Shown: positions 3,784 through 4,533, numbered from the stretch's first letter. The stretch: DNA of 28,899 nucleotides from Candidatus Zixiibacteriota bacterium (GCA_023700785.1 JAMPYH010000001.1:1-28899), one strand, 5' to 3'. The notes: generated by a model not told the origin, from the sequence alone. Program-made: numbers and translations.

Positions 3784-4533
3784 ATGAAGACGCGTTTTAT
3801 GGGACTAGCTATGGGCTCGGCGCTGCTCGCGACGTCGGTATTCGCCGCCCCGCGGATGACGATCTCAGAAGCTGAGTTCGATTTCGGGTTTGTACCCCAG
3901 AATTCGTCGATCTCGCACGTGTTCTGGCTGCACTCGAAAGGGGACGACAGCCTTCGTATCATCAGCGTCCAGCCTGGCTGAGGATGCACCAAGGCGCCTC
4001 TTGAGAAAGAGGTGATCGCTGTCGGTGACAGCACCCGGCTTGAGATCATTTTCGATACGAAGAGCTACACCAACGTGGTGAGTAAATCGCCGCGCATCCA
4101 GACCAATGAGGGTCCGCCGGACAAGTTCGTACGGATCAACGCGTCGGTGGTGAATCGGCCCGATTCCACTTACCCGATCGTGATCAAACCGTACAAACTG
4201 GATCTGACCCAGTTCGGCGAAAAGGTCCGGAGCGAGATCAAGTTCACGCTGAACAACGTCTCGCAGACCGATCTGGCCCCGCAACTGATCTCGTCTGCGG
4301 AACAGTTTTTTGAGGTTGTCCTGCCCAAGGTGATCCCGGCGGGCAAGACAGCCGAAGGCGTGTTGAAGCTGAGGAAGAACGCGCTGGACAAGCCGTTTGA
4401 CAAATCGTTCACGCTGCAGTTGAACGACGAGAAGAATAGTCGGTTTACCATACCGGTTAAGCGGCAGATCCGCAGTGGAGCGCAGGTGGTATCATCGCCT
4501 GCCGCGACCACGCCGAACGCTGGGGGCCATTGA
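3784..4533 (+). CDS. Secreted DUF1573-like protein, probable selenoprotein (UGA at 3979-3981 read as Sec; motif PG-U-G-C-T), 249 aa
   Basis: ORF-track pieces 3718..3981 and 4012..4533 are in the same frame, joined by TGA GGA TGC ACC AAG GCG CCT CTT GAG AAA GAG GTG. The joined protein aligns end to end with 3008..3718 (FDFGxVPQNS, xCT, GDS, KPYK, RFTIP). The TGA aligns with Cys in both paralogs and a SECIS-like hairpin follows. Confidence 0.85.
3987..4027 (+). promoter_or_regulatory. Bacterial SECIS-like stem-loop
   Basis: Upper stem CGCCTCTT (3995-4002) pairs with AAGAGGTG (4007-4014), 8 bp with one G-U pair. The GAGA apical loop (4003-4006) starts with G, 21 nt after the UGA. A possible lower stem is CACC (3987-3990)/GGTG (4024-4027). 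Folded by eye. Confidence 0.75.

Follow-up and report, generated by a model that had tools for sequence, protein, structure and literature searches.

The stretch of DNA analysed here (the window; 28,899 nucleotides) carries at positions 3784 to 4533 what is very probably a genuine and intact selenoprotein gene, with the UGA at codon 66 decoded as selenocysteine (Sec). The gene was read from the sequence of an uncultured bacterium. The window is contig C286 of a 2.47-Mb metagenome-assembled genome (MAG) from a groundwater metagenome, which consists of 320 contigs and is 70% complete. Translation gave a single frame from the ATG at 3784 to the terminal TGA at 4531-4533, with a product of 249 aa when read through, and thus re-derived the 249-codon gene split by a TGA that had been proposed from the sequence alone. 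Codon 66 is the only in-frame TGA, and other stops or frameshifts are absent from the frame. The product matches the Pfam family DUF1573 (PF07610) with 72.6 bits (cut-off 26.1; E-value 2.7e-20) over profile positions 2-98 of 98 (residues 26-122), and a profile search also matched it to a HYDIN/CFA65/VesB-like Ig domain. Its homologs carry the name Zixibacteria in public databases. The equivalent ATG is the start of the orthologs in 37 of 40 relatives. An alternative start at ATG 3718, which overlaps the stop of the upstream gene, was rejected because the orthologs align from ATG 3784. TGA is an ordinary stop in 9 of the 22 other long ORFs of the window, including a 1206-aa ORF at 17583-21203. 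A global reassignment of TGA was therefore rejected, as the earlier reading had already argued. The features of the region are listed in Table 1.

Table 1. Features of the selenoprotein gene region, in window coordinates; hairpin nucleotides (nt) are counted from the U of the UGA as 1.
Feature	Position	Strand	Description and evidence
Upstream paralog, C-D-C, all-Cys clade	3008..3718	+	Co-directional, 65-nt gap; tree; adjacency kept in relatives
Complete CDS, very probably of a selenoprotein	3784..4533	+	249 codons plus stop, Sec at codon 66, two-domain DUF1573 protein
Predicted Sec-type signal peptide	3784..3846	+	MKTRFMGLAMGSALLATSVFA, then APR; no lipobox; read from sequence
Ig-like beta-sandwich domain 1 (DUF1573 domain)	3856..4152	+	Residues 25-123; Pfam (residues 26-122), DSSP of AlphaFold2 (AF2) model, Foldseek
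UGA codon 66, very probably read as Sec	3979..3981	+	Motif P-G-U-G-C-T; Cys in paralogs; TGA in 54/54 orthologs; four assemblies
Hairpin 1	3992..4017	+	nt 14-39; up to 11 bp, loop nt 25-28 (GAGA in the window gene), covariation
Hairpin 2, candidate SelB-binding hairpin	4018..4032	+	nt 40-54; GCUGUC-GGU-GACAGC, 6 bp, GGY triloop nt 46-48
Ig-like beta-sandwich domain 2	4177..4464	+	Residues 132-227; AF2 model; conserved in all full-length homologs
Decayed third paralog, CGC type	4675..4989	+	blastx against intact CGC copies of same-genus genomes

For the conservation of the TGA, we applied a six-frame search to 40 relatives of the same genus, family and order (4 families; 45-76% identity). The best ortholog contains one internal TGA in 37 of these 40 relatives. 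In all 40 extracted genes the TGA is located at exactly the aligned codon, within the motif P-G-U-[G/S]-C-T-[K/Q/T]-A. A sample of 150 genomes of the phylum added 14 further genes, also from two other families of the class, and all 14 share this codon. In total, all 54 orthologs, which come from four families of the order and from two more of the class, have the TGA at this very codon, a pattern that lies far outside what chance would give. Among 54 full-length homologs the column of U66 is at least 90% Cys. At the TGA column, the neighbouring genes carry the first Cys of their CxC motifs (KTG-C-DCT, QPG-U-GCT and VPG-C-GCT for the upstream paralog, the Sec gene and the downstream paralog), and the alignment bears out what had been claimed for both flanking paralogs (CDC and CGC). 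The sequence-only reading had proposed a hidden exported selenoprotein with Sec as first residue in the CxC of a DUF1573 Ig-like domain. All checks that we ran, on the codon in orthologs, on the Sec machinery of the genome, on the codon in independent data, on selection after the TGA and on a stem-loop downstream of it, support it.

Within the genus, dN/dS is 0.17 over the 183 codons after the TGA and 0.20 over the 65 codons before it, so that no relaxation is seen downstream. This bears on the possibility of a nonsense pseudogene, in which a Cys codon (TGC or TGT) mutated to TGA and the 183 downstream codons are now decaying. One transversion separates TGA from TGC or TGT, the adjacent third paralog is genuinely a pseudogene, and a second Sec copy in one relative has an extra TAG and has lost hairpin 2. 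However, a TGA kept at the same codon in every ortholog across the order and beyond, the low downstream dN/dS in a frame free of additional stops and frameshifts, and RNA hairpins that are specific to the Sec forms all argue against decay, and we regard the chance of a pseudogene as negligible.

A sequencing or assembly error with TGC or TGT as the true codon would be conceivable in a MAG as fragmented and incomplete as this one, but the codon TGA is unchanged in contigs of four assemblies, namely of the source run, of an independent soil metagenome and of two metatranscriptomes. The source-run contig is identical to the window over 3751-4523. The contigs of the soil metagenome and of the two RNA libraries keep the TGA despite 10-27 differences each elsewhere, and 53 other genomes carry it too. 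An error at this codon can hence be set aside with near certainty. The RNA-library contigs give a weak hint that the gene is transcribed. Strain variants in the other metagenomes amount to 19 synonymous and 7 non-synonymous changes. The only one in the hairpin region is a C>T at 4017 (synonymous, I78), by which the basal A14-C39 mismatch of hairpin 1 becomes an A-U pair.

The frame could also be read as two genes, a 65-aa secreted peptide ending with the TGA at 3981 and a 173-aa protein starting from GTG 4012. Public databases do hold such fragments for many relatives, where gene calls split the gene into a fragment of 61-88 aa and a 'hypothetical' fragment of 167-179 aa. The split would cut through one beta-sandwich domain, which is continuous in Pfam and in the AF2 model (residues 26-122), and the C-terminal fragment would be without signal peptide. 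The full-length Cys homologs are single genes, and the TGA is aligned with the conserved Cys. Two separate genes are therefore very improbable. Taken together, the conservation of the TGA, the purifying selection downstream and the independent assemblies exclude the pseudogene, the assembly error and the two-gene model. What the databases hold in two pieces is a presumably exported protein that is strongly conserved across this order of Zixibacteria and cut by annotation pipelines.

The machinery for Sec incorporation is present in the same genome. The genes selA (506 bits), selB (301 bits) and selD and the tRNA-Sec (65 bits, gathering score 47) were identified, all four with scores above the curated cut-offs. 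The selD gene has its own in-frame TGA at the catalytic position, and it is a TGA-containing selenoprotein gene in 39 of 39 genomes with a match (38 relatives and the source genome). A read-through of the UGA without selenium, for example by a near-cognate Trp or Cys tRNA and stimulated by structure, would likewise give the full-length product, which would then not be a selenoprotein. Downstream hairpins can generally stimulate read-through, and hairpin 2 lies at a non-canonical distance from the UGA. Against this stand the complete Sec machinery together with a selD that itself uses Sec, the position of the UGA exactly at a Cys of the CxC motif as in a classic Sec/Cys pair, the loop of hairpin 2, which copies the loop of the selD SECIS, and the accepted place of the DUF1573 UGC family among predicted selenoprotein families. 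We consider selenium-free read-through improbable, if slightly less so than the alternatives treated above.

The RNA directly after the UGA was analyzed in the alignment of 40 genes, which is gapless over nt 1-66. The stem-loop that had been suggested downstream of the TGA turned out to be two Sec-specific hairpins, with hairpin 1 directly abutting hairpin 2. Of the Sec genes, 53 of 54 have an intact hairpin 2 (GCUGUC-GGY-GACAGC), compared to 0 of 23 Cys paralogs. This hairpin is formed by the codons GCU GUC GGY GAC AGC for A79-V80-G81-D82-S83. No synonymous variation was found at A79, V80 and D82 and only one synonymous variant in the 40 genes at S83, while the four-fold sites neighbouring the hairpin vary freely. 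The sole Sec gene without hairpin 2 is the second Sec-type copy in one relative mentioned above (L048; G009:C1:64600-65600), which contains the TGA plus the extra TAG. It is probably a decaying, dead duplicate and represents a natural control for the hairpin.

Hairpin 1 is conserved in its pairing. Across the 40 orthologs, 77.5% of the cells are paired. The pair 18-35 is seen as UA, GU, GC, AU and UG and is unpaired in just 3 of 40 genes, and the pair 22-31 is seen as CG, UA and UG. The observed pairing and covariation were reached by 0 of 500 shuffles and by no slid control. On average, 8.5 of the 11 positions are paired in Sec genes compared to 4.5-4.8 in Cys paralogs. In some orthologs the register is shifted by two. 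The loop sequence is not conserved (GAGA, GAAA, AUCU, CCAA and others), and many of the loops start with G. In the RNAalifold consensus, hairpin 2 was recovered, whereas a weak 4-bp alternative was preferred to hairpin 1. Hairpin 1 therefore rests on the count over the fixed structure and on the contrast with the Cys paralogs. Both hairpins are lost in the Cys copies that arose within the Sec clade. An Rfam scan of 3900-4120 with E-values up to 10 revealed no SECIS family and only chance matches to snoRNAs.

In canonical bacterial SECIS elements, as described by the bSECISearch model, the distance from the UGA to a conserved apical loop with G/U is about 16-37 nt. In the selD gene of the same genome, the UGA is followed by a 13-nt linker and the hairpin GGCCGGC-GGU-GCUGGCC with its loop at nt 24-26. 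Across the selD genes of 27 relatives the stem covaries and the loop is always G[G/U]U or GGC. In this genome, selD and two further candidate selenoprotein genes (Trx-like and YHS-like) have their loops at nt 24-30. The element of the DUF1573 gene resembles the canonical type (E. coli fdhF and the own selD) in several respects: a stem-loop located in the coding sequence just 3' of the UGA, a GGU apical loop closed by C-G, and a linker of about 10-13 nt before the first helix. The loop of hairpin 2, C-GGU-G, is identical to that of the selD SECIS. However, it is located about 20 nt farther out; the GGU lies 45 nt after the UGA and the 26-nt covarying hairpin 1 is interposed, and in contrast to a canonical SECIS the element has no Rfam match. 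Some bacterial selenoprotein genes are known not to fit the consensus SECIS model (PMC9312934).

During translation, a ribosome at the UGA would receive SelB with Sec-tRNA(Sec), recruited by the RNA structure immediately downstream. We favour hairpin 2 as the SelB-binding element, as its C-GGU-G loop is that of the selD SECIS, and hold this to be slightly better than an even bet. Hairpin 1 would then be looped out with its 26 nt, leaving an effective linker of about 10 nt between the UGA and hairpin 2, as in a canonical SECIS. With the GGU loop 45 nt out and the other loops of this genome at nt 24-30, a SelB site in hairpin 2 needs this assumption of a looped-out spacer. Alternatively, hairpin 1 could be the true SECIS, with hairpin 2 as an accessory element for stabilisation or pausing, a reading that concerns the RNA mechanism only. 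The loop of hairpin 1 is at the same distance as in the selD, Trx-like and YHS-like genes, its stem covaries and many of its loops begin with G. But the loop sequence is not conserved, whereas G[G/U]U or GGC is present in every selD loop of the clade, and it is hairpin 2 that is the most tightly constrained element and carries the GGY. A SECIS function of hairpin 1 is a plausible but less likely second choice. Returning to hairpin 2 as the SelB site, we can tentatively formulate a wider model, which taken as a whole is rather doubtful. The DUF1573 genes of Zixibacteria would contain a composite SECIS, in which a covarying 26-nt spacer hairpin is looped out and the sequence-fixed GCUGUC-GGY-GACAGC is brought to the canonical distance, and the gene would be the ancestral, order-wide Sec form and the source of repeated Cys copies. 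If this is true, the composite SECIS is a bacterial architecture outside the usual single-hairpin model. In any case, the two-hairpin element provides a concrete, testable example of a bacterial SECIS off the standard spacing. With its conserved GGU loop 45 nt from the UGA, it is the only feature of the gene that can be called unusual, and mildly so.

The family itself is known. A 'DUF1573 domain-containing protein, PF07610, motif UGC' is listed among the prokaryotic selenoprotein families in a review from 2022 (PMC9312934), and the same row appears in a review from 2026 (PMC13188914). For this row both cite Zhang and Gladyshev (2007), who described six new families from the metagenome of the Olavius algarvensis symbionts, including OS_HP2 (PMC1976440). 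We infer from the order of the table and from the NCBIfam name that OS_HP2 is the DUF1573 row of the reviews. The protein described here has the motif P-G-U-G-C-T inside its PF07610 match and is a member of this catalogued family, which has been on the lists since 2007; it is not a new kind. The hope for novelty in the sequence-only reading was thus not fulfilled, as the DUF1573 UGC entry is in both reviews and an NCBIfam model (NF041425, 'OS_HP2 family (seleno)protein') exists.

This model matches the protein with 64.8 bits (6.8e-18), below its curated cut-off of 100. When searched in six frames against the genome, NF041425 reached 48.6 bits at the DUF1573 gene and nothing above the cut-off anywhere in the genome. 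Judged by this sequence score, the gene is therefore placed outside the curated OS_HP2 subfamily, in a new and unannotated branch that extends across Zixibacteria. It shares with the OS_HP2 / DUF1573 UGC family the PF07610 domain, Sec as the first residue of U-G-C, the existence of CGC Cys homologs and a hairpin after the UGA. It differs from OS_HP2 by its length of 249 aa with a second Ig-like domain, by its occurrence in Zixibacteria instead of Deltaproteobacteria, and by an RNA element of two hairpins whose GGU loop is 45 nt away from the UGA; this comparison is one of profile score and descriptions. A domain-only protein search for named OS_HP2 proteins returned only fragments of the same Zixibacteria family. 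As the gene calls are split and NF041425 does not reach the gene, counts of the selenoproteome for the phylum are underestimated. The gene opens no new kind of system. For the DUF1573 UGC family it is a further, well-supported case, with 54 genes carrying the conserved UGA, a Sec-specific RNA structure and repeated replacement of Sec by Cys.

The N-terminus looks like a Sec signal peptide, with a basic n-region, a hydrophobic core and VFA-A; in the AF2 model it forms a helix at residues 3-16 with lower pLDDT. The protein would accordingly be exported via the Sec pathway. The AlphaFold2 model (alignment of 55 sequences) has a pLDDT of 92 and a pTM of 0.83 and consists of two beta-sandwich domains. 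Strand 57-63 is followed by the turn that carries the U-G-C motif, which would be displayed there, at the edge of domain 1. A Foldseek search against the PDB revealed Ig domains of the ASH/HYDIN/CEP192 type and the Porphyromonas gingivalis structure 2QSV (E-values 5e-9 to 1e-12), while a sequence search of the PDB with E-values up to 1 gave no match. The tandem beta-sandwich architecture is common to these proteins and the DUF1573 protein, but the identity is only 9-17% and the whole-chain TM-scores are low (0.3-0.4). To our knowledge, neither 2QSV nor any ASH/HYDIN/CEP192-type protein has a catalytic role, and therefore no function can be transferred from them. We also know of no catalytic function of the Ig-like beta-sandwich fold as such.

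By analogy with other Sec/Cys pairs, the selenol/thiol pair would most likely be a redox-active selenylsulfide centre and less likely a pair of ligands for a soft metal. CxC redox motifs are the CGC in Bacillus subtilis BrxA/YphP and the CPC in Mia40, and a spacing of the CxC type can give a strained, oxidising disulfide or selenylsulfide. As in U-G-C, these motifs have two chalcogen residues one residue apart. The likeness is at the level of the motif only, as BrxA/YphP and Mia40 have thioredoxin-like or helical folds and the DUF1573 protein has an Ig-like beta-sandwich. Membership in the thioredoxin-fold CxC oxidoreductases (BrxA/YphP) was rejected, since the AF2 model is all-beta and Ig-like and the Foldseek matches are of the ASH/HYDIN type. 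The comparison with BrxA/YphP drawn from the sequence alone hence holds for the motif and fails for the fold.

Of the two flanking paralogs named in the sequence-only reading, the upstream one (31% identity) is indeed collinear with the Sec protein over its full length, and the downstream one is a decayed remnant and not a full copy. The upstream C-D-C paralog, separated from the Sec gene by a gap of 65 nt, is probably co-transcribed with it. The downstream third copy matches residues 13-79 (approximately) of an intact 246-aa CGC copy and then, in another frame, about residues 154-177. It contains an internal deletion with a frameshift, and an in-frame TAG lies just upstream of its own ATG. 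After it, at about 4995-5030, a terminator-like hairpin was observed. A maximum-likelihood tree of 64 copies separates an all-Cys clade, to which the upstream C-x-C paralog belongs, from a second clade with 40 Sec genes and 8 Cys genes. Within the latter, CGC copies branch from among the Sec genes at least 3 times, each adjoining its Sec neighbour, so that across the order this clade had Sec as its ancestral state. The Cys copies arise by tandem duplication followed by a change from Sec to Cys.

The gene order in the family is ABC ATPase (minus strand), C-x-C paralog, Sec gene, an optional CGC copy and a GWxTD protein (minus strand). In the window, an ABC-2 permease and an ATPase are encoded on the opposite strand upstream of the DUF1573 genes (1132-2849). 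On the other side, also on the opposite strand, two GWxTD-domain proteins are followed by two MacB/FtsX permeases and an ABC ATPase (5049-11120). The synteny is kept across the family, but with these neighbours on the opposite strand the neighbour analysis gave no functional pointer from the ABC transporter or the GWxTD proteins.

Two de novo searches for a TGA followed by a hairpin across the entire MAG gave mostly noise, and only selD, an ORF with a thioredoxin fold and a weak YHS-like ORF looked credible. The Sec motif of SelD is S-C-A-G-U-A-S-K (L010 on contig C290 of the source genome G000; L062-L089 in the relatives). One relative (G019) has a second, Cys-type selD that is fused into a frame of 750 aa. 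The genes selA and selB were found twice (L001-L004): contig C144 contains a full selA and the N-terminus of selB, and contig C139 the C-terminus of selA and a full selB. This doubling on two short contigs looks like a strain-level duplication or a split assembly. The YHS-like ORF (L109; G000:C8:1707-2531, plus strand) is lipoprotein-like and contains the motif G-F-C-U-V-P-C and a hairpin with its loop at nt 24-28. Its match to the YHS domain is weak (28.2 bits, cut-off 30.3), and the ORF could be a member of the YHS family of selenoproteins, which is already known. The thioredoxin-fold ORF (L108; G000:C304:3595-4500, minus strand) is a candidate exported selenoprotein, in which a signal peptide precedes a thioredoxin/DsbD-gamma-like domain (Pfam Thioredoxin, 4e-15), with TPR repeats at the C-terminus. 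Its motif is W-U-T-W-C-K, and the RNA after the UGA forms a hairpin whose GGUC loop occupies nt 27-30.
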